NCBI GenBank assembly: GCA_963769025.1
Contig: CAVYKI010000003.1
Location: forward strand, 704,001 to 768,000
DNA: 64,000 nucleotides
Source: an uncultured Verrucomicrobiae bacterium
Lineage (GTDB): Bacteria; Verrucomicrobiota; Verrucomicrobiia; Chthoniobacterales; Chthoniobacteraceae
Reading direction: 5' to 3'
This document shows, one piece after another, positions 3,001 to 42,758 of the stretch; positions within the stretch are counted from its first letter, which is position 1; each line of letters begins with the position of its first letter. The notes beneath the pieces are model-generated. The model saw nothing but the letters and a program-made list of their open reading frames with translations, was not told where the DNA came from and ran no database searches. The position numbers and the translations under genes are program-made.

Positions 3001-4000
3001 CTATGTGGAGCCCTACTTTACGACATGGGTCTATGATCCGCCGCTCGACACCTATTTCTCCCCAAATCGCCAGGTCCCGGGGCCCGTGATGTTCGGCTCC
3101 TTGCCGGCACCGCACAAAGATTGGTCGAAGTCCGGTTGGAAGACGCTGCTCTTCTGCCCGAACCCCGCCGGAGCCGGCCATCCCGGTGCACAGTCGCCAC
3201 CGGACCACCTGCTGCTGGACCTTTTCAACATGCCGGTGGTCGAGCCCTATGCCATCAGCGAACCGTTTTCCACCGCGGGAAAGGTGAACCTGAACTACCC
3301 GATGGTGCCATTCAGCTTCATCAAGCGCACGACCGCCCTGCGCGCCGCCCTGCATCCCCTTCGGGTGACTGCCATCCCGCAGTTCTTTGTCGATGGGAGC
3401 AAGCAGTTCCGCTATAAGGGGCAGGATAATGTCGAAAACTTCCGCTATCTCGTGGATCGGGATGAGACGCTGAAGGCGTTCGACGATTACTTCGACCAAT
3501 ACAAGAAGAACAGAAGCGGCGGCTTCTTTAAGTCTGCCTCTCAGATCTGTGAGCGCTACCTCTACCCGAAGGGCACGACCGTCGATGGAAGCTCGGTGAA
3601 ATTCACGAAGGGCGAAGGGCAGATCAAGGCGTTCTGGGAGAAAAACCAGCTCACGGGCGACAACGTCCGCGAGAAGCCGTACGCGGACCTCTATCCGCGG
3701 ATAACCACGAAGTCGAATACCTATACCATTCACTACCGCGTCCAGACGCTGCGCCAGCGAAAGTACACGGGAGATGCCAAAGGCGAAGATGCCTATTATC
3801 GCACTTTCGATGAAAGCCGGGATCGCGTGCTGGCTGAATTCCGCGGCAATACGACGATCGAGCGCTATCTCGACCCCGAAGATCCGCGCTTCCAGCCCTC
3901 ATACGTCCCGGCCAAGGACAGGATCGATGTCGAGAAAAAGTCCCTCGAGGAGGCTTACCGGTTCCGGATCATCTACAACAAGCGCTTCTCACCTTGGTAG
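2..4000 (+). CDS. vccA: Verru_Chthon cassette protein A (TIGR02600-like), 5'-partial
   Basis: Frame open from base 2. Family motifs recognised: MPVRWIY..DG, NPIVGRMGFWTDDDSCKINLNTA, FQRYPGHP.TTSL, FSPNRQ..GPVMFGSLP, PPDHLLLDLF.MPVVEPYAISEPFSTAGKVNLNY, GDNVREKPY..LYPRITTKSNTYT. The N-terminus lies outside the window. Confidence 0.88.
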   Translation, partial: ALSASDRTGNDAPMPVRWIYILADGTLTTPVPLTRPANGTLGLIATWSTVGPDGTSKTGVPTKTNPIVGRMGFWTDDDSCKINLNTAGGFVLPSGVDEDVNLNYTKPTKTLPEKNPGYYAGSFWDTPRVQTYFDRGINNTNVENYRGGLSNSQPGRNEFQRYPGHPSTTSLGLVFKNLLPGVSTGFSSAKLYAMTPRLMPGGSKNGNARLETKFDLPLPIKSRYTASKPGTAGYHLFGSVDELAFTTLNGERKSVEDAINEWVASQPTPTDGLPPEVPLQEGSLTPDMVDKVRFFLTAKGRSPELNLFGRPRVAIWPVPSAKREALLQSYNIRNASDDFIRFCATVGRNSDPTTQAVTRQGEFIFDREDPYSSTVDFNLPRNQQVFGYLRELTSSSGGQIPGFGGNFETKYANGAGGRDQILTEIFDYIRTINQKDGSRERTIDEKTVARSLVNNQLKAASRYAPHAIVIPTRTTFAGRKVSGFGRYPTISEATLVFYNGGYTCQPKKGSDLEKADLPDGGSARTGGNNALVTIYDLTKSPGDPRDPASAQANLDRTSDWAKANVERWTGQLIRAFVIFETFNPMQGYAPVDNFTNISLVDTTKVGTDGKLQRYNFADTNKGFFVHELKINGQFAIQTAGSGGAKPIGIGAGTSGGTIKNSFTRTSGETWGGRNFGGMEGFFHTMQDDISSIPSAANYYAFQSRCEDLVRDGVRVGLEDKTFDFFGGDMDLFIRYEDKAGHNEQIQKITLNFPNAKGWPLPTPSYRLDTGGFDNRNPAFDSNGADSWHAWGTYLKKHNLPSGWGMGYNLPSRIAWSREHSYNPWTKFDKNGKQVGDGYRYANRFLQIVQPGDTIRSLVVGGGDPAAADPRIGALQQEGGTMQPHPDYFSTTKRRAETLRYASGGFYFDPSTPTYAEPPESSTQPTTGSFIPLAGTKYKPGYGPDLVRTDSKGQPFVAKRSDGQLADFDTGIGSFPDGAFAGKADEGNVAEYWQDIWGVWHYVEPYFTTWVYDPPLDTYFSPNRQVPGPVMFGSLPAPHKDWSKSGWKTLLFCPNPAGAGHPGAQSPPDHLLLDLFNMPVVEPYAISEPFSTAGKVNLNYPMVPFSFIKRTTALRAALHPLRVTAIPQFFVDGSKQFRYKGQDNVENFRYLVDRDETLKAFDDYFDQYKKNRSGGFFKSASQICERYLYPKGTTVDGSSVKFTKGEGQIKAFWEKNQLTGDNVREKPYADLYPRITTKSNTYTIHYRVQTLRQRKYTGDAKGEDAYYRTFDESRDRVLAEFRGNTTIERYLDPEDPRFQPSYVPAKDRIDVEKKSLEEAYRFRIIYNKRFSPW

Positions 4001-4045
4001 GCCTTGGAGCCGCCGGGCGCATGGAAGCGCCACCCGCAAAGCACC

Positions 4046-4171: not shown

Positions 4172-4285
4172 CTATTTGCGCCCGACGCGGCTGCGGACAC
4201 CGGTGAACCGGCGGCGCTCGCGGTAGCCGATGAGCGCGCACAGCGCGACCGCGCCGATGAGCGCCGTGGTCGCGGGCTCCGGCAC
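4172..4285 (-). other. PEP-CTERM protein-sorting signal
   Basis: VPEPATTALIGAVALCALIGYRERRRFTGVRSRVGRK*: PEP motif, hydrophobic helix, Arg-rich tail. Confidence 0.92.
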
Positions 4286-7200
4286 AGGGACGATCTCAAA
4301 TCCGCCACCACCGAAGGTAATCTGGGCGCCGCTGCCGATGAAGGTGCTGCCGGCATCCGAGAAGAACAGGATGTTGTCGAGTTGGCCGCTGCTGTATCCG
4401 CTGTCAACCGAGAACAGGAACCGGTCCTGCCCGTCGCCGATGGTTCCCATGTCGGTGTCGCCGATATTGTAGAACGGCCCCGTCCAGTTGAAGACCCTCA
4501 GCGTGCCCGTGAACCCGGCGTTTGCGTTGGTGAACGTCAGCGCGTTGCCATTGACGTTGGTCCCGAAGTCCAGCGTGGATGTCCCGCTGAGCGTGAGGCT
4601 CATGAAGGTCTGGTTCTGGCCGGAGACGATGTTGCCAATCTGCGCCGTCCCGTCGGCGACGGTCAGCGTCGCCGCGCCGCCGCCCACGATGGTGCTCGCA
4701 TTGTTGTTCATCAGCAGCGTGCCGCCGCTGTTCACCGTCACCGCGGACGTTCCGCTCAGGGTGCCGGTGACCTCCAGCGTGCCGCCGTTGACATTCGTCG
4801 CCGCGGTGAATCCGCTGTTGCTGGTGCCCGAGATGGTCACGGTTCCCGCTCCGACCTTGGTCAGATCCGCAACGCCGGTGCCGGTGATGGCCCCGCTCAC
4901 GTTGAGTTTGTCACCAGCGGTCGCCGCTCCGATCGAGCTCGCAGTCTGCAAGGTGACCGGGCCGCCGACGGATGCGCTGAGTCCCGTGCCCGTCAGCGCG
5001 CCTTGCGAAGCCGAGCCGGTGCCGTTCAGGAAGATCGCCTCGCTGGCGACCGTCACGTTATTGATGTCCAGCGTGCCGCCCGCGCTGACCGTGGTGCCGT
5101 TCGTGGCTGCGCCGAGGCCCGCCGCGTTCGCGACGCTCAGGACGCCGCCGGTGACGGCCGTCGTGCCGGAGTAGGTGTTGACCCCGCTGACCGTCCAGGT
5201 CCCGGTGCCAGCCTTCGCCACACCCGTGTTATTCGTTCCGGTGAGGTTGTCCACGATGGCTCCGGCGATTTCGCCGGTTCCTGCGGTGGAGCCTTGCAAG
5301 GTCAGGGTCTTGTTCGCCCCGGCTCCCGTCGCGGTGAAGTCGCTCGTGAACTTCACAAGGCCCGTGCCCGACTGGTCGAGGGTGCCGCCGCCGGTGGTGC
5401 CGGCGAGGTCCACGACGCGGTCGGTCGTTTCGCCTGCGCCGGTGTAGATGAGCGTGCCGGTCGTGGCTGCCGCACCGAGGCCGATGGTGCCGTTGGCGAC
5501 CGAGTTGGGCGCGCCGAGGTTGCTGCTGGCGCTTGGTGCCGGGGTGGCCACGCTGTTGATCGAGCCGACGCTGATGGCACCGTTCTGGATGGTCGTCTTG
5601 CCGGTGTAGGTGTTCGGACCCGACATCGTCATCGTGCCCGTGCCGGTCTTGGTCAGCGAGTTCGTCACGGTGGCCGGGGTCCCTCCGCTCATGATGCCTG
5701 AGTAGACGGTGCTGCCGCCATTACCGCCGGTGGTCAGCAAGCCCGGGATGGACGGAGTGAGGCTGCTCAGGGTGACGAAGCCGCCGCCCGCGAGGGAGCC
5801 GATGGTTTCGGTCTGGCTGTTGACATCGAAGGTCGCGCCGGCATCGACCGTCAAGGCCGAGCCGTTCGGGATCCTGTCACCGGTCGTGCCGAGCTGCAAC
5901 GTGCCGCTGGCGACGGTGGTGGTGCCGCCGTAGACGTTCGTCGCGGTGGTGAACTGCGTGACGCCGGGGCCGCGGGTCGTCAGGTTGAAGCCGCCTGAAA
6001 TCGCGCCGCTGACGGTGAAGAGCGTCCCCGCGCTGGTCGCGGCGATGGTGCTGTCCGAGGCCATGATCACCGTGCCGGACTGGATGGCCGTGCCGGTGCC
6101 GTTGAGGGCGCCCATCAGATCCGCCGGGCCGTAGCCGAAGGCGGCGAGGTTGCCCGCCGTCGTGTCGCCCGCGCCGTTGATGGTCACGCCGATTTCTGCG
6201 CTGGAGGCATTGCTGATGTTCAGCGTGGCTCCGTTCGCCACCACGGTCGTGCCGGCGGTCGTGCCGAGGCCGAGCGCATTGGTGATTGAGAGCGTGCCGA
6301 CATTGATGTTCGTGATGCCGGTGTAGCTGTTCGCACCATTGAGGATCAGCAGTCCGGTGCCGGTCTTGGTCAGCGTGCCGGTGGTGGTGCCGATGATGGA
6401 CGAGATGGTCGTATTGCCGGTCCCGGTGACCGTGAGTCCGAACGTGGCACCGGAGAGCGTGCCGGGGTTCGACAGCGTGAGCAGGCCCGCGTCGGACTGG
6501 ATGGTCGTGTTGCCGGACAGGTTCACCAGACCGCCGTAAACGTTGTTGCCGCTCAGGTTGCGCAGCGCGCCGTTGCCACCGCTGCCGGTGCCGTTGAGCG
6601 TGAGCAGTTCGTTCGGGTCCACCGCGATGTTGCCCGAGAGCGCGAGCGTGGCGCCGCTGGAGACCTCCGTGCGGGTGCCGGCCGTGGCGTCGGCGGTGCC
6701 GAGGGCGTCGCCGTTGGTGATGCTCAGGATGCCCTGCGCGACGAGCGTCGTACCGGAGTGCGCATTTGCCGCGCTCAGGACGAGGGTGCCGGTGCCGGAC
6801 TTCGTCAGCGAAGTCGCCCCGCCGGTCACCTTGCCGGCGAGCGTCAGCACGTTGCCGCTGGTGACTGCGATGGTCGGGGTCGCGTTCGTCAGGGCGATCG
6901 GCGTGTTGAAGGTCGCCGTGCCGGTGGCCGCGCTGTCGGTGATGGCCGCCGCATCAACGATCGTCAGCGTGAAGCCACCCGTATTTTGCAGCACGATCGT
7001 GGACGCGTCGCTGATTGTCAGGCCGCCGATGCTCATGTTGCTGCCGAGCACCATGCTGCCCTGGTTCGTGGCGCCGGTGGCGGAGAGGGTGACCGCCGTG
7101 GACGATCCGGGGACCTGCCCGGTGGCCATCGTGCCCGCGGCATCGGTGGTCCAGTTGCTGTTGGCCGAGCCATCGGACACGGACCACACGTTGGCACCAC

Positions 7201-10200
7201 CCGCGAAGCCGCCCTTCCAGAACGCACCGGTCAGTTCGGCTGCGGGGAGGGTGTCCAAGGTCACCAAGGTATCAGTCTGATTGCTCAGGAGCATCGGGAG
7301 GACCGTGAAGTTGGTGTTGTTGTAAACATTGCCGATCATGTAGCTGCCGGAGCTGCCGTTCGACGTGGTGAGGCCGCCGGAAGGCGCGCTGATCACGGTG
7401 TGGGTGCCGCCAGGAGCCGAGCCGGTGATGCCATAGACATCGATCGAGGTGATGCCTGCGTGCGAGGCGAGTGCGCCGGTGTTGAGGGCGAGCTGGCTGC
7501 TGAAGGCCCCGGAGCCGACTTCCATGCCGACACGCTGCGTTGCGCCGCTGAAGGTGAGGACCGTGCCGCTGTTCGCGCCGAGGGTCAGGATCTCATCGGC
7601 GTTGATGCCCGTCCGCATGTTGAAGGTCGCGCCGTTGCCCACCGTGAGGCTGCTGGTGCCGCTGATGCCGTCGATCACTCCCGCCGTGGCGTGGGTGACT
7701 TCCAGGATGCCGCCGCTGACCACCGTCGAACCGACGTAGGTGTTGATGTTGCTCAGCGTCAGCTTGGTCGAGCCGGTCTTGGCGAGGTTGATGTTGTACT
7801 GGATGACGCCGCCGTAGATGGAGTCGAGCGTCGCGCCGCTGCCGACGGTGAGGGTCTTCACCTCGGTCGAGCTGTTGGTCACGTAGCCGCTGCCGGTGAG
7901 GTTCGTCGTCGCGGCGGTCAGGCCGGTGGAAGGCGAGGTCAGGCGGCCGATGGTCTGGTTGAAGCCGTTCAGGTCGAGGACCGAGGCGCCCGTGGTGCTC
8001 ACGTCGCCCGTCGTGGGCAGCGAGTTGTTGGCACCGATGCGGAGCATGCCCTGGAGGAGGTTCGTGCCGCCCAGGTAGGTGTTCGCGCCGGAGAGCGTGA
8101 CGGTGTCGTAGCCCTGCTTGGTCAGCCCGCCGGGGCCGCCGATCGCGCCTTTGATCTCGAGGATGACGCCCCTGGCCGTGTTGCCGAACGGAGAGAACGG
8201 ATTCGCCTGCACGCCGTTGTCGTAGCCGTTGATGCCCTGGTTGATGTTCTGACCGAGGAACGAGTTGCCGGCCAGCGTGAAGGTCACGCCGCTGCCGAGG
8301 GTGCGATAGACCGCGAACTGGGTGGCGTTGGCCGCAATGCCCTGGTCGTCCACCTTCACGAAGCCCTCGATGGAGCCGCCATTCATCGTCACCGCCACGG
8401 TGCCGGTCTGGTCGTTGTTAATCTGAAGCGTCCCTGCGCCTAGATTGATGGCTCCGGTGCGGGCGCCATTCACACTCCAGCGCTCGATGCCGCCATCCTC
8501 GTAGGTCACCGTGTTGGTGACGCCGCCCGCCGCGAAGATGTCGAGGACGCCGAAGCGCTTCACATTCACCGCGCCCGTGCCGAGCGAGGCGGTGTTGAAG
8601 ACGCCGACCTCTCCCTGCTCGATGCTCACGTTGCCGGCAAAGGTGCTCGCGCCACGGATGTAGAGTTCCGCATTGCCCCACTTCTTAAAGGTCTGGTCCG
8701 CGCTGCCCGAGAGGCTCGCGATGGACAGGCCGATGCCGGAGCCGGAGGTGAAGTTGTTGTTAATGGACGTCTGGCCGATGTTCAGGATGGCGCTCGCGTT
8801 CGCACCGACCAGCGAAACGTCGCCGACCTGGAGCAGCGCGCGCTGCTGGTTGGCGGTGAAGGCCAGTTGCGCGTCGTGCAATGCACCGCCCGTGGAGGTG
8901 ATGACCACGTTCGAGAACGAACCGGCGGCGCCGAGCGACTGGGTGCGATCCGCCGCGCCGGGGGTGTAGTTGATCAGGGCGTTGTCCGTCACGAGCAGGT
9001 TGCCCATGGAGTAGAACTCGTTGAGCGCGCTGCCCTGGTTGGCGTTGAGCTGGAGCGTGGGCGTGCCGGTGGCGTTGGCGTGGAGGGCCACGGTGTTCGT
9101 GGCCGTCGCATTGCCGAGGGCGCCAAAGACGTTGGCGACGATCGAGCCTTCGTTGACGTTCCAGCCGTTCGAGTAGCCGTTTCCCGGGCCGCGGGCCGCG
9201 TCGCTCTGGTCCTTGGCAATGGTGATCGAGGAGGCACCGAACTTGGTGATGCCCGCCGCGCCGACATTCTGGATGTCGCCGTTGATGGTGAGCCCGGCCT
9301 GGCTGAAGATCAGCGCTTCCTTGCCGTTGAAGTTCAGGTTCGGGTTAATCACCGCCGCCGCGTAGGCGAGGATGCCGCCGCCGCGCCGCACCCGCCTGGT
9401 TGAGCGTGATGGTGTTGAACTGGCCGAAGGCGTTGTTGACCGTGAATGCACCGATGCGGAAGGCGAACGTGGAGACATCGCCGGCCAGCGTCGTGTTGGC
9501 CGTCACGTCATCGATCCGCGTGTTGTTGTTCCCGCCGAAGTTCGTGCTGTTGTAGGTGACGTTGATCAGCCGGTTCGTGCCGCCGCCCGCGTCGGTCAGG
9601 AAGGACTGGCCGACTGCGTTGATGAAGCCGTTCACGATGTAAGCCGGCAGCATGTTCACGCCACCGCCCACCGTCGCAGGCAGGCCACCGGAGGCCACGA
9701 AGTTGTCGGTGTTGCCCGCCGTTCGTGCCGAAGGTGTCGCCGGGCACGAAGACCATCGTGCCGGTGCCGACACGGGTCAGGGAGGCAGCGGTCAGGACAG
9801 TTGCGTGTGGCAGGCACGCCGGGGTTGATGATGCCGATCCGGGAACCCTTGTCGAAGGTGATATGCCCCGACCGTTTCGGTGATGCCGACGTGGCATTCT
9901 GCGACTGGAAGAAGAGCGACGAGCCGTTCAGCGCGATGGCCGCGGTGTCGCTCCAGCGGTTCATGTTGTTGCCGGCGGTGATGCCGTTGCCGTCGAGGCT
10001 CAGCGTCGAGCCGGGGTGGAAGACGTAGGTGTTGGCGTTGTTCGGCCGAGCAGATCGCCGGGCGTGTTCAAGGCATTGCGGAACTGGCCGTTCACGCTGA
10101 CGGCGCCGAGGAGGCCGAAGACATCCACCGTGCCCGAGCCGAGCGGCGTGTCGCCGAGCGTGACGCCGGAACGGATAAACAGCGAGCTGCCGCGGCTGAC

Positions 10201-13200
10201 CGTGGTGCCGCCGGTGTACGTGTTGTCATTGTTCAGGAGCACCGTGCCCTGGCCGTTGACGGCCAGCGCGCCGACGAGGAGCCGGTTTGCGCCGGTGAGG
10301 ACGTTGGCGGTCCCGACCACCGGGCTGAGATCCAAGCGGTTGGTGGCGGAGTCGTTTGCGCCGAGGCGGTAGGTGTTGCCGTTGCCAGCGCCGAGGGCGT
10401 TGGCCGTGTAGGCGATGGTGCCCTGCGAACCGAGGTAAAGGCTGCCATCACCGATGCTGCCGGCCGCGAGGCTCAGGGGATTGGCGTAGGTCGCCTCGAT
10501 GCGCAGCGTGCTGTTGGTCGAGGCGGGGTTGATCAGCGCGGCGAGTTGCGCCGGCGTGTTGGCCGCCAGGATGCGCACCGTGGCGAATCGCGCCACCGAG
10601 CCCATGGCGAGGACGCTCTGTCCCGATCCGGTGTCGATGTTCGTGCCCGCTTCGAGGCGGATGGCACCTTCCGGATTGATCTGGATCTGGCTCGTGCCCG
10701 CCGTGGCCAGCGTGCTCGCGCCGCCGAGGTTGCCGAAGCGCATCAGACCCTGGTTGATGTAGATTCCGCCCGTGAAGGTGTTGACGGCATTCGGAGCCGC
10801 TGAACCCGCGAGCCGGTCGTCAAACCAGATCTCGTTGCCGCCATTCTTCACGATGTAGAGGTTGCTGCCGCCGTCGCTCACGCCGCTCAGGACTGTGCCG
10901 AAGTTGCCCGTGAAGGTCGGCGTGCCGCTCAGATTCACGGCATTGAAACGCGTCGAGTAGTTGTTGCCCTGATTCACCGTCAGCGTCTGGCCGCCGATGT
11001 TCAGGGTGTTGAAGGCCAGCGTCTTGTTGGATGCACCGATCGCGGACGACCGGTTCGACGTGATCGTCGTGCTGCCGACGATGTTCAAATTCGGGACGTC
11101 GGCGAAGAGGTAAGTGCGGTTGGTGCCGGTCGCATCGCCATCGACCCGGAGGCTAAGTGCACCACCGAGGATGGTGATGTCGCCCGAACCGAGCTGGCTG
11201 AAGAGAACGTTGCCGCTGGAGGTGCCAAGGCTGGTGGAATTGCCGCCCACCTGAACGGTGCCGCCCTGAATGATCAGGCCGCCGGTGTTGTCGCTGGTCG
11301 TGGTGTAAACGGCCGCGTCCAGACCGAGGTTGAGCTGTCCAGCGGCCTGCTTGATGATCGTGGCTGAGCCGGTCAGCGCCTGGTTGCTCGTGACACCGCC
11401 GAGGGTCAGCGTGTTATCGAGCCGGAAAACCGCGTTCCCCACCGGGCCCAGATCGGTCGTGCCGTTGATCTGAAGCTGGTAGGTATTGCCCGAGGTGAGG
11501 CTGAAATTCTGGCCCTGGTCTCCGGGCGCACCGCCGAACGTGAGCGTGCCGGCGACCTGCATTTTCGCGCCGGTGAGCGTCGTGCTTGCGGCCCGATCCA
11601 CGTTCACCGTGACGAGCGCGTTGCCCGCAGCCAGCACGATGCTGTTGTTGAAGATCTCGTTGGTGACATCCCCGCGGAAGCCCAGAGTGGCGGCGTAGCC
11701 GTTGACGGTGATGACACTGCCGTTGCCGCCGTTGTTCGATGTGCCGGCGGTGGTGTCGCTGTCGCGGATAAAGAGCTGACCGCGGTTCAGGGCGATGGGG
11801 CCCGTGAAGCTGGTGTGATCCGAATCCAGGAAGAGCAGTCCGTCACCGGTCTTCGAGATGGCGGTGGCGGTGATCTTGCCGGTGCCGGTGGCGACGCTGT
11901 CGGCCACGTTGTTGGCCAGCGTGCCGATGATCATGTTGCCGACTTGGTTTCCGATATACAGCTCGCCCGTCGTCGTGATGGCCGTGGTGATGGTGTTGGC
12001 CACGTTGGAAATCAGGCCGCCGCTGCCGATGCTGAGGATGCCGGCGTTGGTGCCGGAGATGTTGGCGTCGGCACGGACGCCCCAGGTGCTCACCGTCACG
12101 CCGTCGGCGATGGTCGCCGCCGCATTGACCAAAAGGCGCTCGTTGGCGAGGAGCGGGTTGGTGACGAGCGCGCCGCCGATGGCGCGGTCAAAGCCGGCGT
12201 TGACGAAGCCGAAGTCGCTGTAAGTCACGAACTGGACATCGGTCTGGTTCCAGATCCACGGCGTCATCATGCCGTTGGCGAGCGTGGCACCGGAGATGTT
12301 CGCGAGCTGCGCCGCGAGGTTGGCGCCCGCCACGGTCACGCGTTCATCGCTGCCGAGCTGTCCGGCATTCTGCGGATGGATGGACACCTGGCCCTGGTTG
12401 AGGCGGGTGAGGCTCGCCATGTTCAGTTCCGTGATGCGGCCGGTGAAGCTGCGGTTCGGGATGATCAATGAACCGCCATCGATGCTGACGGCACCGACGA
12501 CTTCGCGGATGTCCGCGGCGTTGCTGCCGACGAGGCGGAGGATGCCGCTGTTCAGGACGACGGGCGTGGCGTCGCCATAGCGGCCCTGGGCCGAGATGCC
12601 GTTCGCGAGCAGGTCAAAGTCATTGCGAAGCTGGATTTCGCCGCCCTGGCGGATCGTGGGCTGGATCGCCGTGGCACCGTTGAAGAACCGGCCGCCGGCA
12701 CCGCCCACGGCGAGGGCGCCGAAGGTCTCGTAGCTCGGCGACGTCATCGTGCCGCGGATTTCCAGGACGCTGCCGCGGTTCACCAGCGTGGTGCCGGTGT
12801 AGGTCTGGTTGCCGATGATGATGGCCGTGCCCGCGCCGTTGCCCACGGTGACCGAGCCGCTGTTGGTGAGCGGCGCGCCGGTGACGAGCGAGGTCTTCGT
12901 GGAAGCGCCGAAGGTCACATCGCTCAGCGCATTGTTCGTGAAGTCGCTGCCGATGTAGATGATCGCGCCGCCGCCCGCGAGGCGGACGACCGAGTCGGTG
13001 TTGTTGCCACTGCCCGCACCGAAGTTGTACGACTTGCCGGCTCCGAGCGAGGCGGCGTTGTAGCTGCCTTCGAGGAAGGAGCCGTTCGTCGTGGAACCGA
13101 GGAACCACGTGCCGTCGCCGATCTTCCCGAGGTCGATCGTCTGGCTGTAGGTGGAGTTGATCGCGAGAACGCCCGCGCCGGTGTTCAGCGCGCGCTGCAT

Positions 13201-22200: not shown

Positions 22201-25200
22201 TGAAGCCCGCTCCCGCGATGTTGCTGCCGGGGGCCTGGGTGAGCGTCTTGCCATCACCCACGTCGAATCCGCTCCCGGTCGAGGTCAGAGCGGTGACGTC
22301 ATTGGTCAGCGTGTAGTCGAAATCCCACACGCCGAGCAAACCGCCGTTCAGCATGATGTGGGAGGTCGCGGGGAGCGCGCCCACCGTGCCCACCACGAGC
22401 GTGCCCTGGTTGATCTGCGTGAAGCCGGTGTAGGTATTCGTGCCGCGCAGGCCGAGCGCGCTCAGTGCCGGTCTTGATCAGGCTGTTGAAGCTCGTGCCG
22501 ACCCCGTCGGTGATGTTGCCGGTGATGATTGCACGGGCGTTGACGTTGTTGACCGTGATCGTGCGCGCCGAGCCCTGTGCGGTGCCGAAGGCGCTGCTCG
22601 AAAGGCTGACATTGCCGGCGAGGAAGATGTTGACGCCGTTCGTGTCGATGATCGCGTCACCGAGGAAGGTGACGTCGTTGGCGAGCGTGATGTTGGGCGC
22701 GAGCCTGGGCAGGCCCAGATTTCCATTCGCGCGCAGCGTGCCGCCGTTGAACGTGATCGTGCCGGTGCCGAGCGCGCCGCTGTTGCCCAGTTCTACGAGC
22801 TGGCCGAGATTGATCGTCGAGCCGCCGGTGAAGCTGTTCGGGGTGTTCAGGAGCACCGTGCCGCCGCCGAGCGTGACCGCGACGGACTGCGCCTGGATCG
22901 TGTTGCTCACGACGCCGAACTGGACGCTGGCCGTGCCGGTGAGCACCGGGGAATTGATCGAGAACGAGCCGCCGCCGCCGCCGATGCGGTAGGTGTTGCC
23001 CGCCCCCACGCCGAGCGTGGTGGCCGTGTACGCCGAGAGGGCCTGGTTCGAGAGGCCGCCGCCGAGGAAGCTGTTTCCGTTGGTCGTGAGGGTGGCCTGG
23101 TTGAGCGCGGTGCTGAAGCCGGTGACATCGATCGCGACCACGCCGTCGTAGGTCGGATCGGAACTCACAAAAGTGACCGCGGGCAGCGCGCCGACATACT
23201 GCATGTTCAGCACGCCCGCACCGGCCTGATCGCTGTTGATGGTGAGACCGCCGCCGACGTTGGCCGCGTTGCTGATGCCGATGGCCGCGCCCGGGCTCAC
23301 CGTGATGGTGCCCGTGCCGAACGGCGTCTGGGCCAGCCCGTTGAGCGAAACCAGAGCGCCCTGGTTGACGGTGACCGCCGCGCTGTAGGCGGGAGAGTCG
23401 CCGCCGATGCTCAGCGTGCCCAGGCCCCACTTCTGCAACGCTCCCACGCCGGAGACCCCGCCGAGAATGGTCATGTTGCTGTTGGTCGCTGTCTCCGTGT
23501 TGATCGAAACCGGACCGTTGAACGTGGCGCTGCCGTAGTTGACAAAGGCGTTGTTCGTCACGCGAACGACCACCGGGGTGTTGAACGTGTTGTTCGCGTA
23601 AGGATTGACCGTCAGCTGATTGTAATAGGAGCTGTTGCCGCCCACGTTCGAATCCGCGTTCACCACCACGGTGCTCAGATAACGGGCCTGCCCCTCAGAG
23701 TACATCTGGCCGCCATTGAGGATGATTTGGTTCCCGTTGATGTAGGGGTTCACCGTGCTGCCGCCCAGTGCGTACTGGTTGTTCAGGCGGAACCAGTTCA
23801 GGCCGCTGACGGTCACATCGCCGGTGAGCGTGCCGCGGTTGTCGGCGTCGAGCCGCATGTCACCGGCGCCAAACTTCGTGATGCCGGTGGCCGTGATGGG
23901 ACCGGTAAAGTTCGTCGTGCTGGCGGTGTTGGGATTGTAGATGACGAGTTCACCCGCCGTTGCGATGGGCGTGGTGAAGGTCTTGGCACCGGAGCCATTG
24001 GTGACGATCAAGCCGCCGCTGACAATCGTGAGCACATGGCTCGGTGTGAGGGTCACGCTCCCCTGAGTCAGCGACGCCTGGTTGGACATCGTGATCGTGG
24101 AGGCACCGAGGGCGGTAATCACCGCACCTGCCGGGATGCCGGTGCCGGTGATGGGCTGGCCGACGCGGAGCGTGGCGATGTTGGCCCCGCTGACACCCGT
24201 GATGATATTGGAGCCCTGCGTGCTGGCACCCGTGACAGTCGCGGCGTTGCCCGTGGTGATGGCCGAGTCGGTGCGCAGCGCGTACACGCTTTGACTGGCG
24301 GTGAGCGCCTGGGTGACGCCGACGATGTCCACTGTGGCCACGCCGGTGGTCAGGCCCGTGAACGTGTTGGCGGTCGTCAGGCGGTTGCTGTAGGCCACCT
24401 GCCCGGCGCCCGGCGTGGCGATGCTGAGGAGCGGCTGGAGACCGAGCGTGCCGCCCTGGTTGCTGAGGAAGGTGAGATTCGTGCCGTCCACCATCCACAC
24501 CGGGGCGATGCCGCCGGTGGCACCTGCGCCGTTGTTGGTCGTGCCGGCGTTCGCGCCAAAGGTCGGAGTCGTCACGAGCAGGCGATCAAAGGCGGCGGCG
24601 CCGTTGAGGCTGCCCTGCGCTGTCATCACGCCCGCCGCGATCGTGGCGGCGGCGGCGCTGGTGACCGTGAGCGTGCCCTTCTGCGAGCCGCGGACGATGT
24701 CCGAGACCTCGAGGACATTCGTACCCGAATTCTGGCGGCTCAACTGGATCGTGCCGTTGTTGAGGCCGACGGTGACCGCGCCGATTTTCTCGTAGGTGTC
24801 CTGGTTGTTCGTGCCGACAAGGTTGAAAGTGCCGCCGTCGAGCGTGACGCCCGTTGCATCGGCCCAGCGGCCCTGGGTGCCCGAGCCGGCGAAGACGCCG
24901 GAGTTGTTGTCCAGACGGATCACGCCGAGGTTGCGCAGGACGTAGGTGTTGGCATTTCCCAGGGCGGGAACGTTGTACGCCGAACCGTCGCCACCGCGGA
25001 AGATGAGCACGCCGCTGTTACGGATTTCCACCACGCCCGAGCCGAGCGGCGTCGCTCCGCCAGGTCCGGGCGCTCCGCCGGTTTCCACGACGAGGGTGCT
25101 GCCACGGTTGATGAGCGTGCCGGCGCTGTAGCTGTTCGAGTTCTGGATGACCACCGTGCCCGTGGAGTTCAGGGGAGCCACGAGGCCGAGGGTGACCGTA

Positions 25201-28200
25201 GGGATGGAGCTGCCGATCTCGACCGAGTTCGCACCGGAGAGCACGTTGTCCGAGCCCGCGAAGGTGAGGGCCACGTTGCTGGCGCTGTTGGCACCGAGGC
25301 GGTAGCGGCTGCCGTTGCCGGCGGTGAGGCTGCTGGCGAGGTACTGCACGCCGGCGGTGCCAAGGCTCGCGCCGTAGGCGCCGAGGAACTGGTTGCCGTC
25401 GCCGATCTGCGTCATGTCGAGCGCCGTCGTGAAGGTCGGGATGCCGATCTGCACCGTGCCGCCGAAGGCGTCATTCTGCGTGGTCGCAGTCAGCGCGCCG
25501 GTGCCATTGGTCGGGCTGAAGTCGCCATCGAGCACCAGTGCGCCGAAGCCGGCCGTGCTGCTGAGGATGTTCACGCCGGCTGCACCCGTGGTGCTCGACG
25601 AGGCCGCGATGCGCAGGTAGCCGCCCGGATTCACGATGACCATGCCGGTGCCCATCGGCGTGCCGGTGGTGCCCGTCACCTGGACGGCGCCGCCGGTGAA
25701 GATGTTCGTGCCGCCCGTGTAGGTGTTCGCAGTGCCCGTGATGCGCACGGTGCCGGTGCCAGTCTTGTTGATGGCAAAGGCCACACTGCCGGTGTCCTGG
25801 ATCACCCCGGAAAGCTCGACGACCGAGCGCCCGGCAAGGGCCGCAGCGGTGGTGACGTTGAAGACCGCTGCATTGCCGCCGGTGACCGTGCCCGCGAAGC
25901 GGATGTTCTGGCTGTCCGTGGACGGCGTCGAGGTAAAGACGGTGTTGCCCACCGTGAGATTGCCGAACTGGAAGTATTGATCCAGGAAGCCGGTGCCGCC
26001 GATGCCGCCGTTGTTGTCGGTCACGATCGAGGTGCTGGTGCCGTTGACGATGACGCTCAGGCCGATGGTGTTCGGATTGCCGATGATCGTGGCCAGTCCG
26101 GGGCCGACGCCGCCGGCGAACAACTGGAGGTTGCCCCCCTGCAGTTCCAAGGTGGTGGGCGTTCCGGAAGCGTATCCGCCCAAGGCGGAGGGCGTATTGA
26201 GCAACACATTGCCCGACCGCAGCACAAAGCCGCCGGTGAAGGTGTTGAGATTGGACTGCGGGTTGCTGCCGCCGCTGTTATGGCTGCCGTTGAGCTGCAA
26301 GGTGCCGGTGCCGCCCTTGATGACGCGGACCGTGCCGGCGCCATCCTGGATGGTTCCGTTGAAGACCGAGTTGTTGGTCGCCTCGACGATGAGCGTTCCC
26401 GCCGTGGCATTGGTATTGGTGATGATGCCCGCCGATCCGGTGAGGCGCACCGACCTTCACGTTCGTCCCGTTCAGGTCGAGCGTGCCGGCGTCGTTGAGG
26501 ACGATGTTATGCGAAGCCGGCTGTGCGGTCGCACCGCTGAACTGCACGGCGCCGGACTGCACGGCGAGACCGCCGCTGATGCGGTTGCTGCCGCTGAAGA
26601 GCAGGGTGCCGGGGCCAAACTTGGTGAAGCTGTTCGCGACCACGCTGCCGCTGAGAGTGGGCGTGCCGCTGGTGAAGCCGGTGCTGGTGTACACCACGCC
26701 TTCGCCATAGTTCAGGCCATTGAGCTGGGTGGCGCCGTTGTTCACAAAGCCGAAGAACAGGTCGGAACTGATCACCGGGGCCGCGCCGCCCGCGCCGTTG
26801 ATGAGGATGCCTCCGAGCTGGACCTGGTTGCCGGTCGAGCCGTTCGCCACAATTCGCAGGACTCCGCCGGAGACGTTGGCCGTGGTCTTGAAGGCGTAGA
26901 TGCTGTTCGTGCCCGTGAGAACCTGGGGGGTGGTGATGTTGCCGACCGCAGTGGGCGCAAGCGCGGAAAGGGTCGTGACCGGCGTCGTCGGCGCGCCGGT
27001 GAGGAAGCCGTTCGTCGTGTTGTAGGTCACGAAGTCCGCATCGCTGTTCGGCGCACCGTCCGCGAGGCGGACGATGACCGGGGAGACGATGCCGTTGAAA
27101 TTCGAGGAGGCCACAGCCACGCCCAGAAGCTGCGTCGTCGCGAGCAGCCGCGCACGCTGGCCGGCGGTCGCACCAAGATTGGCCGTGGGCTGGATGACCA
27201 TCGTGCCCTGGTTCGTGCGCTGGATGTTGCCGAAGGTGAACTGGTCGTTGAAGGCAACGCTGTTGTTGATGTCAAAGATGCCGCCACCATTGATGTTCAG
27301 CGTGCCGGTGTTGCCCGTCGCGTAGTCCGCCACGCCGGCATTCGTGATGCGGATGGTGCCGCCGTTGAGCGTCGTGGTGCTGTTGGTGCCGAGCGGGGCG
27401 GCCCCGGCGGTCTGCAGGACCTCGATGACGCCCGCATTGGCGCTCCATGGCGTCGCCGCGGCGTTCGTCACCGTGAGCTGGAGAGTGCCGGCCCCGACCT
27501 TGTGGAGCACGCCCGTGCCCGCCGCCGCGACCGTGCTGGTGACCGTCTTGTTGGCCGCGACCTCGATGGCGCCCGTCGTGCTCATCGTGATGACCCGGTT
27601 CAGGTTCGCGATGTTTTCCGTGAAGCGCAGCATCGGCGTGCCGCCGGTGCCGTAGTTGGCGCTCGCGTTGATTGAAGACAATGGCCCCGGGCGTCGCAGT
27701 GTTGCCGAGCTGGTTGTTGCGCAGAGGCGCTCACCACACCGCTCATGATGGTCAGGCCCGCAAAGCTGTTGTCGCCCTGCAGGACCAAGGTGCCCGAACC
27801 GATTTTCTGCAGAGCTGCCCGCGCCCTGCCAGATGCTGCTGCCATCCTGGGTGAGGATGCGGCCCTCGGCCACGTCCACGTTGCTGGTGGCGAGGAAATT
27901 GAGGTTCTTGTTCAGCGTGAACGACGCCTCCCACGCGCTGAGCGTGCCGCCATTCATGTTCACGTACGGATTCGTGCCGAGCTGGTTGCCGTCCGTGATG
28001 GCGATGTTGCCCGCGTTGATCAGCGTGATGCCCGTGTAGGTGTTCGCATTCGTCAGGCGCAAGGCGCCCACGCCGACCTTGACCAGGCCATTGTAGGCGC
28101 TCGCGCCATCGCTGATGACGCCGGAAAAGGTGACGATGCCGCCCTGCGCCTGGGCGTAGGGCGCTTGTGTTCACCGTGATGGTGCGCATCGAGCCGCCCA

Positions 28201-31200
28201 CCGCGCTGTTCGAGAGACCGACCGCGCCGCTGAAGGTAAGGTCGCCCGCCGTGCCGTTGAAGGCGCTGTTGAAAATCACGTCTCCCGCAAAGCTGATGGC
28301 ATTCGTGACCGTGCGGCCGCCAGCAAAGCCATGGAGGCGCTGCATTGCGTCGCTCTGGATCGTGCCGCCGTTGAAGATCACGGTCGCTGGCGCCAAAGGC
28401 ATTGGCATTCCCGATCTGGACAGTCTGGCCCTGGTTGATGAAGACGTTGCTGGTCGCGTCGAGGTTGTTCGACTGGTTGAGGACCACGGTGCCGCCGCCG
28501 TTGACCATGCCCACGGACGCGCCCTGGATGCTGTTGTTGATGGCGCCAAACTGCACCGTCATGCCGGAGCCGCTGAGTTGGTTGGCCCATTCATGTTCAG
28601 CACGCCGCCGCCGCCGCCGATGCGATAGACGCCGCTGCTGTCCGTGAGCGTGCCGGTGAAATTCGCAGCCCCGCTGGCCGTCACGCCGGTGCCCGCATTG
28701 ATGCCCGCGGAACTTCCGAGGAAGCTGGTGCCGCTGCCGATGGTGCCCTGATTGATCGCGGTGTCAAAGCCGAGCACATCCACGGCGATGACGCCGTTGA
28801 ACGGGCCACCGTTGGTGCCGTTGTTGAACGTGATGGCCGGGAGCGCGCCGCTGTACGCGAGGCCGACGACACCGAGTCCGGTGAGGTCGCTGTTCACCGT
28901 GAGACCGCCGGTGACGGTGTTGGTCGGATGCGCGAGACGGACGGTCCCGCCCGGGTTCACCGTGACGAGCCCGGAGCCGAACGGAGTGTCTCCGAGGCTG
29001 CCCGCGGTGGAGACGAGGATGCCCTGGTTGACGACGGTGCCGCCGCTGTAGTTGTTCTGCGCGACGGTGGCCGCGGCGCCCGCGCCATTGGTGAGCACCA
29101 AGGTGCCAGGGCCCCATTTCTGGATGGCGCCCGCGCCGGTGACCTGACCTTGGAGGAAGGTGGCGTTCACACCGCTGGTGGTCGTGAGGAGATTGAAGGC
29201 GGCACTCTGATTCAGGGTGACCGTGCCCGTGTAGACCTGGCCGCCGGTGAGGGTCAGCACGGTCGGATCGGGAGCGCCGCCGGTCCGCGCGGCAAACGTG
29301 AGGCTGCCGAAACGGGGAAGCGTCGGCGTCGTGTTGGAAAGGATCGCCGAATCATTGATCACCGTGATTGCGCTGAGGAAATTGCCCGCGGCGGCCGTCG
29401 ATGGGCTGACGTCGAGGGTGCCGCCCGCAAGGCGGATGGCGGGCGCGTCCACCACATACGGCGTGGTGGTGGCCGCGGTGGTGTTTGCGCCGAGGCGGAC
29501 ACCGAGGGCGTTCGGCGTGGCGAACCGCAGCGAACCCTGGTTGATGGTCACAGTCCCCGTCAGCAGCGGAGTCGCGGCGACGGTGCCGCGGCTGTCGCCC
29601 GTGAGCGAAAGGGTGCTCGTGCCCGCCTTGGTCAGCCCCGTGGCGTTGATGCTGCCGGAGAGAATCTCCACGAACGCGCCGCCGTGGGAGTCCCAGATCA
29701 TCGCCTCACGGTTGCCGGCGGTGCCGAAAATCCAGTTGTTCGTGTGGGTGCGGTCGGCTGTCAGTGTGCCCGTAAAAATCAACCCGGCTGGATCGCCCAC
29801 GGGGGCGCTGGCGCCGATGGTGATGGCTCCGGTGCCGGTGAGTCCAAAGTCGCCGTTGACCCGAAGGGCGAGCGCATTGCTGCCGACGATGGCGGCGGTG
29901 GCGGTCTGGTTGACGGTGTTCGCAGCCGTCGAGGTCAGGATGTTCGTGGAGGCGTAGGTGATCGGAGTCACACCGCCAGTGGCATTGTAGCCGACAAAGG
30001 TGGTCGCACCGGTGTGATCCACCAACCACGCCGGGAGCAGCGCCGGCGTGCCGATGGCGCCGCCGTTCAGATTGGTGATCATGAAGCGCGTATCCGTCGC
30101 GCCCATGGTGCCGCCGGTGGTCACGAAGCCGAGCGAGCCCGCGTTGGAGCGGTTCAGGTCGGTGAGGTTGATGCGCGCATTGTCCGTGGCGGCTACGCCG
30201 CGGGAGATTTCGATGAGGTTGCCGCCCTCGAAGTTGATCGTCGCGAGATTCTGGATCGTCGTCTGCGCGGCCGTCGTGGAGCCGAGGAAGCGGAAGTTGC
30301 CGCTGCTGAGATTCAGCGCGGTCGTGCCGGCCAGGCGGGGCTGGGTGGCGCTGGTCGTGTACGCGTTGTTGTTCAGCACCAGGCCGACATTCTGCCCGAC
30401 TGCATTCGTGAACGCGGTGTTCATGATGTTCACCGGGTTCGTGAACGTCTGCTGCGGCAGCGTTGCGGCGACATTGTAGGCACCGCTGAAGAGCAGCTGG
30501 CCAAACAGATTCACCTGGCTGCCCTGCGGGATGTAATCCTGGACGTCCGCCGTGCTGGTGATCTGAAGCGTGCTGGCGCCGCCCGCGAAGCGGTTCACGG
30601 TGGTGGAGCCGGTGTAGTTGTTGCCGGTGCCGCTCAGGGTCACGGTGCCGTTCATGCCGCCCGTTGCTCCGACGATGTTCGATACCGTGTGGCCGATGAT
30701 GATGCCGTTCGTGATTCCGTTGGCGAAGGTCAGGTCGCTGGAGATCGTCATCACCGTGCCCGCGGCATTGTTGGTGCCGAGCCGCAGGATGCCATCCGTA
30801 TCCGCGGAGATCGCGCCGCTGTAGGTGGCCGTGGCGCCGGCGCCCAGCCAGAACCGGCCGTTGCCGGCGGCGTGATTGCCGAGCTGGCTCATGTCCACCG
30901 CGTTGGTGATCGAGCCTTGGTTGGTGCGCAAGGCGGCACCGATCACGGGGCTGGTATAGATGCCATTGGCCGAGGTGCCGATCGCGAAGTTCGCACCCAG
31001 TTCGAGCACGCCGGGCGCATTGCCCGCCGTGGTGGTGCTGGTCGGCCCGGTCGGGCCCTGGGAAACATTTACGACACTCCCCACCGTGGACTGGATGGCG
31101 ATCTGCGAGGGGCCGGTGAGGTTGCTCGTGTCGCTGATCCGCAGAATCGCATTCGGAGCGATGTAAACCGCACCCGATCCCATGGTCGCGCCGGTGCCGC

Positions 31201-32332
31201 CGGCAAAGTTCAACTGGAGCACGCCGGCGAAGACATTCGTGCCGCCGGAGTAGTCGTTGGCGGTGGCGGAGGTGTTCGCGAGGACGAGCGTCGCGCCGCC
31301 GACCTTGTTCAGCGCACCCGTGCCCGTGATCTTGCCTCCCGTGGCGCTGCCCACGTTCACAGTCGGAGTTCCGTTGCTGATGGTCGAGACTGCGCCGGCG
31401 AGATTCAGGTCGCCGGAGAGCAGGAGACCGAAGCCGTTCGCCGCCGTGACCAGGAGCGTGTCGTTATTCAGCGTGAGCGGGCCGCTGATCGTGTGCGTCT
31501 GGTTCGAGCCACCGCCACCGATGGCGCGATCCACGTTGATGATGGAGTTGCCGCGGATTTCGAAGGTGTTTGCCACCGTCAGCGCGGTGTCGTTGAGGAT
31601 ATCGAACTGCGCGCCCGTGTTCAGCGTGATCGTGCCGGAAGTCCCCGCGGCGGCAGAGCTAAGGCTGACGGCCAGACGGCCCGCGTTGATCGTGACGCCG
31701 CCGTCGAAGGTGTTCACCCCGGACAACTGCACGAAGCCCGCGCCGTCCTTGGTGATGCCCCTCGTGAAAATCCCGTCGTCGATGACCCCGGTGATGTTGA
31801 TCCCCTGCCCCGCAAGCGCGTTGTTGATGACGAGGTTGCTGTTGAGCGTGACGCCGGTGGAGATGGTGTCCATGCCCGCGAGACTCGTGATGTTGAGACC
31901 GCCGTGGTTCTTGAACAGCAGCGCCGAGCCGCTGCTGACATCAAAAGTCAGCGAGCCGCCGCCCGCCGCGAGCGTGTAAACGCTGGAGCCCAGCGCATCG
32001 CCCAATTGCAACGTGCCGATGGTGATCGCGGCAGTCATGTTGATGACCTGGTTCGCCGTCAAATCCGCCAGCGAAAGGATGGCGATGTCGTCCTGCGCAT
32101 TCGGGAAGCCCGTGTTCGGCTGCCAGTTTGCGGTATCATCCCACGCAAACGGACCGGCCCCCGTCGGGAGCCACGAATAGGTCGCGGCTTCGGAAGGAAG
32201 TGCGCTCAGCGTGAGCAGCGACGCGGCGACGGCGGCAATGGAACCGGCGAGTGCAGAAGGCTTCCGAGTTTTTTTGCCGGCGCGCTGTTTTTTCTTATGG
32301 AACGCGCGGAAATTGAGGTGGGTGGTTTTCAT
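4172..32332 (-). CDS. Giant (~9,380 aa) secreted PEP-CTERM surface protein with autotransporter-associated beta-strand repeats, broken by at least 13 apparent indels
   Basis: Minus-strand ORFs 28559-32434, 28053-28562, 27752-28549, 26278-28071, 27600-27845, 22299-26450, 15584-22396, 10000-16872, 9656-9964, 9508-9897, 9345-9773 and 4172-9478 join into one continuous G/T/N/A/S-rich reading. ATG at 32332 starts a basic n-region, hydrophobic core and SEA|A site. Many LTKxGxGTLxLxGxNTYxGxTxxxxGxL repeats (TIGR02601/PF12951 type). C-terminal VPEP-TM-RERRR. Frame switches near 28588, 28388, 28163, 27817, 27722, 27673, 26447, 22464, 16877, 10047, 9890-9805, 9720 and 9388. Confidence 0.85.
9245..30800 (-). 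repeat. Hierarchical ~5.5-kb (~1,850 aa) protein super-repeats inside the giant gene
   Basis: Recurring markers: TPFGxGxxTVxPG at ~28980/23320/17815; ANSxTKFGPGTLL at ~26620/21060 (variant ~14910); Px(W/Y) at ~30027/24496/18969/12257/9640; GITKFG or GLTKAG at ~29630/23880/18440/9245. Confidence 0.75.
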
Positions 32333-42754: not shown

Positions 42755-42758
42755 GGGT

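Follow-up and report, generated by a model that had tools for sequence, protein, structure and literature searches.

Does the 28-kb stretch on the minus strand of this contig hold about a dozen hypothetical genes or a single giant one, and what kind of protein would a single gene encode? In the window, i.e., the whole 64,000-nucleotide stretch of DNA that was analysed, one reading path runs for 28,161 nt from an ATG at 32332 to a TAG at 4172 and needs no in-frame stop (Table 1). Codon-usage Viterbi decoding places 13 frame switches along this path, identical at all four penalties (8, 12, 16 and 20), of which 11 carry an extra base and 2 a missing base. The path consists of 14 in-frame segments with 9,381 sense codons, no nonsense codon and a product of about 930 kDa (9,383 aa by arithmetic, if every break is one base). 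A preliminary description had proposed one gene of about 9,380 aa and 0.9 MDa, fragmented over about 12 ORFs; the single gene and its size stand, but the pieces number 14. That annotation would report such pieces had also been foreseen, and the last one is stored in the public protein set as a separate 1,739-aa protein (P0001), so pipelines do report fragments.

Assembly error is the most likely origin of the breaks. No reads of this strain were found (in the sequencing-run search the best run shared 0.07 of the words, and no RNA run was listed), so this reading rests on rates and on relatives. Among 96 conserved genes of the assembly, 39,984 aligned codons contain 68 frameshifts (0.57 per kb; 60 with an extra base and 8 with a missing base) affecting 29 genes, and 8 of them fall in one gene that we take to be rpoB. 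At this rate 16 breaks would be expected in 28.16 kb versus the 13 seen (P(<=13) = 0.28), a Poisson test that is only rough because the number of breaks per 28 kb shows overdispersion (mean 6.8, variance 21.7). Under one common filter, the rate is 0.25 events/kb in the giant gene against 0.24 in the genome, and the 11:2 bias toward extra bases is no different from 60:8 (Fisher p = 0.66). Two other genes of the window, priA and amtB, are split as well. Contigs from relatives, which are 92 to 96% alike, are one base shorter at 16878, 22464, 27718 and 28162, and the piece of one such contig across 27813 and 27725 is 2 bases shorter. The extra base is absent from relatives' contigs at 5 of the 9 breaks examined (28588 to 16876), while the other 4, plus the 4 at 10044 to 9383, have no read-level support. 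One run, X5, covers 22464 and 27718 with the deletion not listed, although its pieces may not bridge the sites.

The breaks could also be 13 real indels in this strain, making the locus a true pseudogene of a once-intact giant gene. The absence of reads leaves room for this, three giant paralogues in the same assembly (5,896, 5,838 and 4,578 codons) are without any break, and two homologous loci elsewhere (G081a and G071) likewise end in out-of-frame tails. However, the giant gene shares its rate and extra-base bias with conserved housekeeping genes, not all of which can be dead; there are 0 nonsense codons in the whole path; and of the 40 listed substitutions that separate it from relatives' contigs, in a comparison with 1,418 further rows, 30 are at third codon positions. 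We regard a pseudogene as very improbable. A set of separate genes, or a locus with programmed frameshifting or phase variation, would be barely credible. Each large frame does have a formal start codon and one piece has its own protein entry, but 7 internal start codons were checked and none is followed by a signal-like sequence, past most breaks the old frame continues as noise rich in Arg, His, Cys and Pro, and the breaks sit within repeats that run unbroken in homologues. In-frame homologous sequence spans all 13 junctions, and all 13 are crossed by the alignment to an intact 17,622-aa protein, whose frame (G166) aligns to residues 1063 to 8691 in one piece (40%). The preliminary description had likewise noted one repeat grammar through each frame switch and no sign of internal gene boundaries. 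Slippage and phase variation were rejected, as neither long runs nor slippery tracts occur at the breaks (mean longest run 2.54 versus a background of 2.53). The 28-kb stretch is very probably a single gene that is whole in the cell and interrupted only through indels of the assembly, and its fragmentation, most likely a sequencing artefact, is a reminder that error-rich assemblies conceal the largest genes. Methylation-motif errors were considered and are not claimed: GCGC occurs close to 6 of the 13 breaks, against a background of 14.6%, yet the housekeeping breaks have it nearby in only 16 of 68 cases, and none of the k-mers near breaks is clearly enriched.

Table 1 Features of the giant gene and its surroundings (positions in the window)
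Feature	Position	Strand	Basis
Single giant gene, ~9,380 aa, 14 in-frame segments	4172..32332	-	Reading path and homologue alignments
Frame switches (13)	28588, 28385, 28159, 27813, 27725, 27673, 26445, 22466, 16876, 10044, 9799, 9717, 9383	-	Codon-usage Viterbi
Cluster of 7 breaks (28588 to 26445)	26445..28588	-	Viterbi; relatives' contigs
Two isolated breaks (22466, 16876)	16876..22466	-	Viterbi; relatives' contigs without a base at 22464 and 16878
Cluster of 4 breaks (10044 to 9383)	9383..10044	-	Viterbi; homologue alignment as sole support
Signal-peptide-like leader with basic n-region and hydrophobic stretch (residues 27-45)	32186..32332	-	Sequence and hydropathy
Internal cap 1 (autochaperone-like, predicted)	29881..30346	-	Cap profile, 83 bits
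Internal cap 2 (predicted)	26919..27384	-	Cap profile, 41 bits
Internal cap 3 (predicted)	24413..24878	-	Cap profile, 92 bits
Internal cap 4 (predicted)	21319..21784	-	Cap profile, 34 bits
Internal cap 5 (modelled)	18883..19348	-	Cap profile, 129 bits; structure model
Internal cap 6 (predicted)	15126..15591	-	Cap profile, 28 bits
Internal cap 7 (predicted)	12126..12591	-	Cap profile, 134 bits
Internal cap 8 (predicted; two breaks inside)	9500..9961	-	Cap profile, 63 bits
Terminal cap	4285..4693	-	Structure model; HHalign to internal cap
PEP-CTERM sorting signal: VPEP, membrane helix, basic tail, stop codon	4172..4285	-	TIGR02595, PF07589, hydropathy
HisKA_3 kinase and LuxR-type response regulator, upstream	32671..34465	-	Domain matches
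Verru_Chthon cassette protein A, convergent, starts before window	2..4000	+	TIGR02600, 650 bits vs cut-off 332

Homologues are present in 28 of the 151 genomes searched. The 13 complete relatives range from 4,318 to 17,645 codons and all have a PEP-CTERM end, so the size is not exceptional in the family. Two NCBI matches to the C-terminus are labelled Verrucomicrobia, and a search for related loci with the C-terminus gave 1 locus from 235 candidates; a search of near-length proteins with an internal unit gave 3 matches among 8,000 scored, and an Atlas search returned PATR clusters and unnamed clusters only. A protein of 3,545 aa (P0126; source name Chthoniobacter flavus Ellin428) is 41% identical across the whole 620-aa unit. 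As this cultured relative holds a named homologue, tests are feasible.

The leader of the giant protein was called by inspection and hydropathy, and similar leaders are seen in G014, G004 and G003. Judging from its sequence, cleavage is likely after Ser-Glu-Ala, at about residue 49. Its h-region and the VPEP helix at the opposite end are the two most hydrophobic 19-residue windows of the protein (1.94 and 1.67). Scanned alone, the 52-aa tail passes both TIGR02595 (20.5 vs 16 bits) and PF07589 (25.8 vs 20.7); at E<=0.001, the PEP-CTERM family is listed neither for the last frame as a whole nor by the genome-wide scan. The only Cys of the protein sits in the C-terminal membrane helix. Each of the 6 large frames scores above cut-off for both PF12951 and TIGR02601, and 26 PATR core motifs can be counted with our own pattern. 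With Pfam and NCBIfam, an autotransporter barrel family is listed for 0 of 9 frames scanned, and the last 342 residues are modelled as a beta-helix plus one helix. The preliminary description, which had a single signal peptide, a single VPEP anchor, an essentially Cys-free mature repeat region and no autotransporter beta-barrel, and which had suggested the TIGR02601/PF12951 search, agrees with these results throughout. A special 'GYRERRR' tail class was set aside: the tail is common among the giant paralogues of this genome but occurs in only 3 of the 13 complete homologues, and the likeness of PEP-CTERM tails within a species has already been described.

What is new beyond the preliminary description is a set of eight internal cap copies, homologous by profile to the terminal cap, which in its model superposes on the autochaperone ends of autotransporters. 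HHalign pairs the internal and terminal cap profiles at 93.8% (E 1.7e-7), and 5 of 5 windows without the cap's first half, used as negative controls, score <1%. Structure models cover 2 of the 9 caps (internal cap 5 and the terminal cap). Segment-wise prediction, which had been recommended, gives a beta-helix both for the C-terminal segment (pLDDT 91.6, pTM 0.87) and for the internal unit (pLDDT 90.3, pTM 0.91). In one comparison, the top four matches of the C-terminal model are all passenger ends of autotransporters, namely pertactin (Z 14.0, rmsd 4.1, 254 aligned), EspC (13.9), Ssp (13.7, rmsd 3.0, 186 aligned) and IcsA (13.4), and each finishes at model residue 309 to 312, which is the VPEP. 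In the case of the internal unit, IcsA aligns with Z 11.7 (rmsd 4.3, 223 aligned), and the IcsA, EspC, Ag43 and Ssp alignments all end at model residue 447 to 451. The isolated IcsA autochaperone (3ml3) falls in the expected place, unit residues 273 to 450, with a weak score (Z 5.7, rmsd 4.2, 125 aligned). The best match of the C-terminal model in a wide search is a metagenomic beta-helix domain, no autotransporter (Z 14.9), and Z-scores from 5.7 to 14.9 are in a range that repeats can reach through a common arrangement. With both models Foldseek found nothing at E<=0.001, a PDB sequence search (alignment A2) gave 0 matches, and no Pfam autochaperone family is listed for the protein.

Taken as predictions, these models suggest that each segment of 800 to 1,250 residues forms a right-handed beta-helix whose end resembles that of an autotransporter passenger, with PEP-CTERM in the place where the passenger's linker and barrel would start. 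The intact gene could instead encode one continuous beta-solenoid in which what recurs is a common irregular rung rather than an autochaperone-like folding unit, a reading we find unlikely. The middling Z-scores and the lack of significant Foldseek or PDB sequence matches would suit it, as would EtpA and VacA, which align loosely over most of the unit (rmsd 16-18). It does not sit well with a module that is homologous to the terminal cap in controlled comparisons, or with four passenger ends that halt at one model residue while other beta-helices align only from ~460 onward. According to the models and cap profiles, the probable structure is a succession of at least nine beta-helix rods, with an autochaperone-like cap closing each one. 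The fibre first proposed keeps its predicted beta-helical fold but probably loses its continuity. Across 14 complete proteins, cap number tracks length (r = 0.96; 3 caps at 4,716 aa, 14 at 17,622), in a sample of kin of which several were also used to build the cap profile.

Judging from gene order, the HisKA_3/LuxR pair upstream of the gene is a possible regulator, and another pair, paralogous to it, lies ahead of the genome's next giant gene. A conserved two-component regulator is not claimed, since only one of 26 loci (G100) has a close pair beside it, and weak regulator matches occur at 2 others. Only cassette protein A adjoins the giant gene, TIGR02596 and TIGR02599 matches lying elsewhere. 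A dedicated Verru_Chthon export cassette was rejected as a rule, with cassette genes at 1 of 26 homologous loci, many of which have short flanks or none. In TIGRFAM notes on these cassettes, PEP-CTERM proteins of unusual size that have an autotransporter-type domain are reported nearby, so the kind is known to curators. The genome has three secretin loci above cut-off and three exosortase genes (PF09721 above cut-off), the nearest ~38 kb beyond the gene start.

The account as a whole, i.e., one intact gene encoding capped beta-helix rods that serve as a surface adhesin or matrix fibre, seems to us fairly likely. The Cys-free chain would be exported by Sec and retained by its C-terminal helix, after which an exosortase may cleave and re-anchor it. 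Each cap, if its predicted autochaperone role is correct, would nucleate the folding of its own segment. The outer membrane would probably be crossed through a type II-like secretin machine, by analogy with other C-terminal sorting signals, which need the T2SS; for the giant protein itself, we hold the chances of this route to be evenly balanced. Alternatively, a beta-barrel acting in trans (a stand-alone autotransporter barrel or a two-partner system) could export the chain, and its vectorial folding at the surface would then be driven by the caps. Autochaperones act in barrel-mediated export and can work in trans, according to the available part of PMC5767081, and the genome has 5 PF03797 matches. 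However, none of these 5 is on this contig, 0 of 13 complete homologues end in a barrel, and the T2SS requirement of other sorting signals points the other way, making this route rather unlikely.

On the surface, the chain would be displayed as a jointed fibre of roughly 150-200 nm (our estimate from passenger dimensions), its length adjusted through duplication or deletion of whole segments. The adhesive or matrix role itself is reasonably likely. A glycan-degrading or glycan-binding, lyase-like beta-helix, or an envelope spacer tethered to the inner membrane, is a decidedly weaker candidate. The structural neighbours include polysaccharide lyases, tailspikes and lyase-like folds, and Arg, Glu, Asp, Tyr and Trp columns are conserved within the unit; yet neither Pfam nor NCBIfam gives a catalytic family, Asp and Glu make up just 4.1% of residues against 58% for Gly/Thr/Asn/Ser/Ala, and PEP-CTERM proteins are described in the accessible text of 10.1101/2023.06.07.544157 as mostly structural and required for floc formation.

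The interest of an adhesin or matrix fibre of this kind lies in its architecture, nine homologous caps predicted along one chain with no barrel found. In the portion of PMC5767081 available, the autochaperone is described as one domain upstream of the autotransporter barrel. The giant protein bears on two questions, i.e., autochaperone-nucleated folding without a barrel and the outer-membrane crossing of PEP-CTERM proteins. If true, the capped-rod arrangement accounts for the folding of a megadalton beta-helix and for length change across the family. More tentatively, and with somewhat less than even confidence, these proteins may be viewed as barrel-less passenger concatemers: each ~1,000 residues would have their own autochaperone, rods would fold singly, growth from 4,000 to nearly 18,000 residues would proceed by segment duplication, and PEP-CTERM would replace the barrel, handing the chain to exosortase and secretin. 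That would be a family-wide route to surface fibres of 0.4-1.8 MDa in which autochaperone-led folding is uncoupled from type V export. A literature search largely outside subscription journals found no paper on repeated autochaperones or giant PATR/PEP-CTERM proteins, and supplements with giant-protein lists may include the family.

Several known systems can be compared with this protein. Proteins of at least 10,000 aa are reported as frequent in Verrucomicrobiota, and Omnitrophota giants, which have many membrane segments and reach >30,000 aa, are found near type II-like secretion genes (10.1101/2023.11.21.568195; PMC11573180); the parts of these texts that are available do not contain the word PEP-CTERM or mention the PATR repeat. 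With PEP-CTERM/exosortase substrates, as far as the accessible text of PMC1569441 describes them, the giant protein shares an N-terminal leader, a C-terminal PEP motif, membrane helix and basic cluster, a Ser/Thr/Asn-rich body, many paralogues per genome and encoded exosortases. Its length is well beyond that of PepA, the tested member (261 positions in the NCBIfam model), and, unlike these substrates, it has a body predicted to be a multi-segment beta-helix. PATR repeats are shared with the 'Autotransporter-associated beta strand repeat' proteins of Verrucomicrobiota (TIGR02601/PF12951), e.g., P0126, whose automatic names say nothing of a segmented cap architecture. Type Va passengers (IcsA 5ke1/3ml3, Ssp 8e7f, pertactin 1dab, EspC 9mne and Ag43 7koh) are alike in their PATR, a Cys-free body, a right-handed beta-helix and a C-terminal cap in structural register, the last two being predictions for the giant protein, at an identity of only 11-18%. 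Unlike a type Va autotransporter, with its one cap upstream of the barrel (PMC5767081, in the part available), the giant chain is predicted to have one cap per segment, nine in all, and ends in PEP-CTERM and a stop codon, with no translocator barrel found.

All long frames between 4172 and 32332 lie on the minus strand, and each consists of a Gly/Thr/Asn-rich repeat that gives way to Arg/His/Cys/Pro-rich noise, while the repeat resumes in a neighbouring frame. With five clean stretches as training data, a codon model placed 13 frame switches, 11 extra-base and 2 missing-base, identically at the four penalties tried. Reading through them, with an X at each break, gives a product of 9,381 codons and ~930 kDa that contains no stops, and homologous sequence spans every junction, bearing out the single hidden gene of the preliminary description. 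The one signal peptide proposed at its start is likewise upheld: no window of the protein is more hydrophobic than those of the leader and the VPEP helix, and none of seven internal starts checked carries a signal-peptide-like sequence. The tail, proposed as a VPEP anchor, exceeds the cut-offs of both PEP-CTERM models (TIGR02595 and PF07589) when scanned as a short piece and is without a PEP-CTERM listing in longer scans. The HMM check suggested for the autotransporter-associated beta strand repeat (PATR; PF12951/TIGR02601) puts it above cut-off in all six large frames. The mature repeat region is indeed essentially Cys-free, the only Cys of the product lying within the C-terminal helix, and the view that no autotransporter beta-barrel is evident holds, as no barrel family was found in the gene and the five barrel matches in the genome are all on other contigs.

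Fragmentation of the giant gene is most likely an artefact. The source assembly (13 contigs, 5.34 Mb, rated 83% complete) was compared with 249 proteins called from stretches of three same-genus genomes; in the 138 that match it (at least 55% identity and 60% cover), which total 60,454 residues, 77 frame changes fall in 36 genes. Frameshift-aware alignment of the 96 genes with at least 70% identity and at most 1,300 aa found 68 events in 39,984 codons (60 extra-base versus 8 missing-base; 29 genes affected), 8 of them in one gene, which we take from its sequence to be rpoB. At the conserved-gene rate 16 breaks are expected in the giant gene versus 13 seen, with a similar extra-base bias (p=0.66), and when codons are scanned across the whole genome with a single filter, breaks run at 0.25 per kb in the gene versus 0.24 in the genome. 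Overall, the assembly carries ~0.24-0.57 frameshifts per kb, clustered and with a strong extra-base bias, and priA and amtB in the same window are likewise split by frame breaks. Break counts are overdispersed and the errors patchy: of 12 PATR/PEP-CTERM genes read through, 8 contain no break, including three of 4,578-5,896 codons. Given this frameshift rate, split genes elsewhere in the genome deserve suspicion.

No sequencing runs of the source strain were found. Contigs from four of five listed runs were aligned to 16000-33000, which covers 9 breaks, the 4 at 10044-9383 lying outside; because these contigs come from relatives (92-96% alike), they show the state of the family, not that of the source strain. 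They carry single-base deletions at 16878, 22464, 27718 and 28162, each at most 7 nt from a predicted extra base, and one contig piece across 27813 and 27725 is 2 bases shorter. Among the 12 indels listed of 46, the other 8 are in frame or cancel pairwise. One run covers two of the deletion sites, and the deletion is not among its indels listed.

One internal stretch of the gene matches 4 of 41 genomes and another has matches in 28 of the 151 genomes searched from the family, representing 10 of 29 genera, where misses in incomplete genomes do not amount to absence. Half of the 26 homologous loci (13) contain a complete single frame, 4,318-17,645 codons long, with PEP-CTERM at the end; 2 more are PEP-CTERM-ended with a start outside the sequence compared, 9 continue past that sequence and 2 have out-of-frame ends. 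A 17,622-codon frame (genome G166) aligns in one piece to residues 1063-8691, crossing all 13 breaks, and a 9,272-codon frame (G048) matches residues 209-3998 (51%). The length of ~9,380 aa stands and is mid-range for the family. Its members are already known under automatic names, one unit of the giant protein shares 41% identity with a 3,545-aa protein (source label: Chthoniobacter flavus), and very large proteins are reported in Verrucomicrobiota in the available text of two sources (10.1101/2023.11.21.568195; PMC11573180). Together with the Verru_Chthon genes, the Chthoniobacter flavus match suggests a Chthoniobacter-like verrucomicrobium as the source.

A module recurs eight times within the giant protein, spaced 812-1,253 residues apart, and the block of residues ~890-2780 is duplicated at ~2800-4650, one copy being absent from genomes G004 and G003. 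For the last 342 residues (43-sequence alignment) the model combines a beta-helix with a single helix (pLDDT 91.6). A wide structural search with this model returned beta-helices (top Z 14.9), and in a second comparison four autotransporter passenger ends rank first, each terminating at VPEP. A 620-residue internal unit, with 80 of 105 candidate sequences kept in its alignment, was modelled at pLDDT 90.3. On this unit the alignments of IcsA, Ssp, EspC and Ag43 run to residue 447-451, where their passengers end; the IcsA autochaperone spans residues 273-450 (a weak match, Z 5.7, structural Z-scores being middling for repeat proteins), and many other beta-helices align from ~460 onward. The terminal cap is matched by a profile built from residues 295-450 (93.8%, E 1.7e-7, 89 columns) and by an overlapping window (90.1%); as controls, five other windows all gave <1%, and against the internal cap two further windows of the C-terminus stayed below 9%. 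Cap count grows with length (r=0.96, 14 complete proteins, mutually kin). On this evidence, with models for two of the nine caps, the beta-solenoid fibre proposed earlier, whose beta-helix is indeed predicted, is better read as nine putative capped rods, and the final gap between caps, 1,758 residues long, could conceal a further one.

The first 8,300 residues of a 15,222-codon homologue (L011-L015, G014:C18:57659-103327) do not resemble the window protein in blastp and nonetheless hold 8 weak cap matches, which suggests whole-segment swaps. In the source genome (contigs C3, C4, C9, C10 and C12; loci L040-L051) no fewer than 12 PEP-CTERM genes bear PATR or caps; seven exceed 3,000 codons, and most share a Gly-Tyr/Trp/Phe-Arg-Glu-Arg tail, whereas the one on C9, ahead of a Verru_Chthon cassette, has the generic tail.

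Features around the giant gene (window positions unless a locus is named)
Feature	Position	Strand	Remarks
Verru_Chthon cassette protein A	2-4000	+	convergent with giant gene; other cassette genes not adjoining; sits between two giants
Second giant PATR/PEP-CTERM gene	L040:3209-16562, just before window	-	~4,360 codons, 10 frame breaks, 4 caps
Two facing DUF1549/DUF1553 + DUF1501 pairs	34423-45608		WD40 gene and KamA-family radical SAM gene between them
969-aa protein	45356-48265	+	arylsulfotransferase-like region joined to many EF-hand motifs
priA, uvrC, amtB	48650-56168		

The second giant gene has its own kinase-regulator pair ahead of its start, and the pairs ahead of the two giants are paralogous (regulators 49% identical). 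As a general rule neither adjacency held: cassette genes on the one hand, and a nearby two-component pair on the other, were each matched at 1 of 26 loci, many of which have short flanks. The giant gene of G004 likewise has a DUF1549/DUF1553 + DUF1501 pair upstream, and what we take to be the priA-uvrC-amtB block lies ahead of the G003 giant gene, there on its other side. Within the EF-hand part of the 969-aa protein, lanmodulin and XopAW matches fall below cut-off.

The genome encodes three exosortases and three secretin loci. The chain would be exported by Sec, fold segment by segment and pass through a secretin, its PEP-CTERM tail presumably being processed by an exosortase. An adhesive or matrix role is the likely one. 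No catalytic family was found in the giant gene, but with lyase-like folds among the structural neighbours an enzyme or glycan-binding role is conceivable. In the available text of the sources cited here, PEP-CTERM proteins are proposed to undergo cleavage and to reach or cross the outer membrane as matrix components (PMC1569441), Zoogloea floc formation requires them, GlyGly- and MYXO-CTERM proteins require the T2SS (both 10.1101/2023.06.07.544157), flocs form again in Aquincola when PepA is overexpressed (PMC9850573), and 9 of 23 PEP-CTERM proteins of Akkermansia were seen by mass spectrometry (PMC4960237). The literature searched, main texts with few subscription journals among them, yielded no account of repeated autochaperone-like caps in a chain that lacks a barrel and has a PEP-CTERM tail. 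Among known systems, in the text available, autochaperones initiate passenger folding and are able to work in trans (PMC5767081), and Ssp, which contains a PATR, terminates in rungs resembling an autochaperone and bearing a hairpin cap (PMC9977779).
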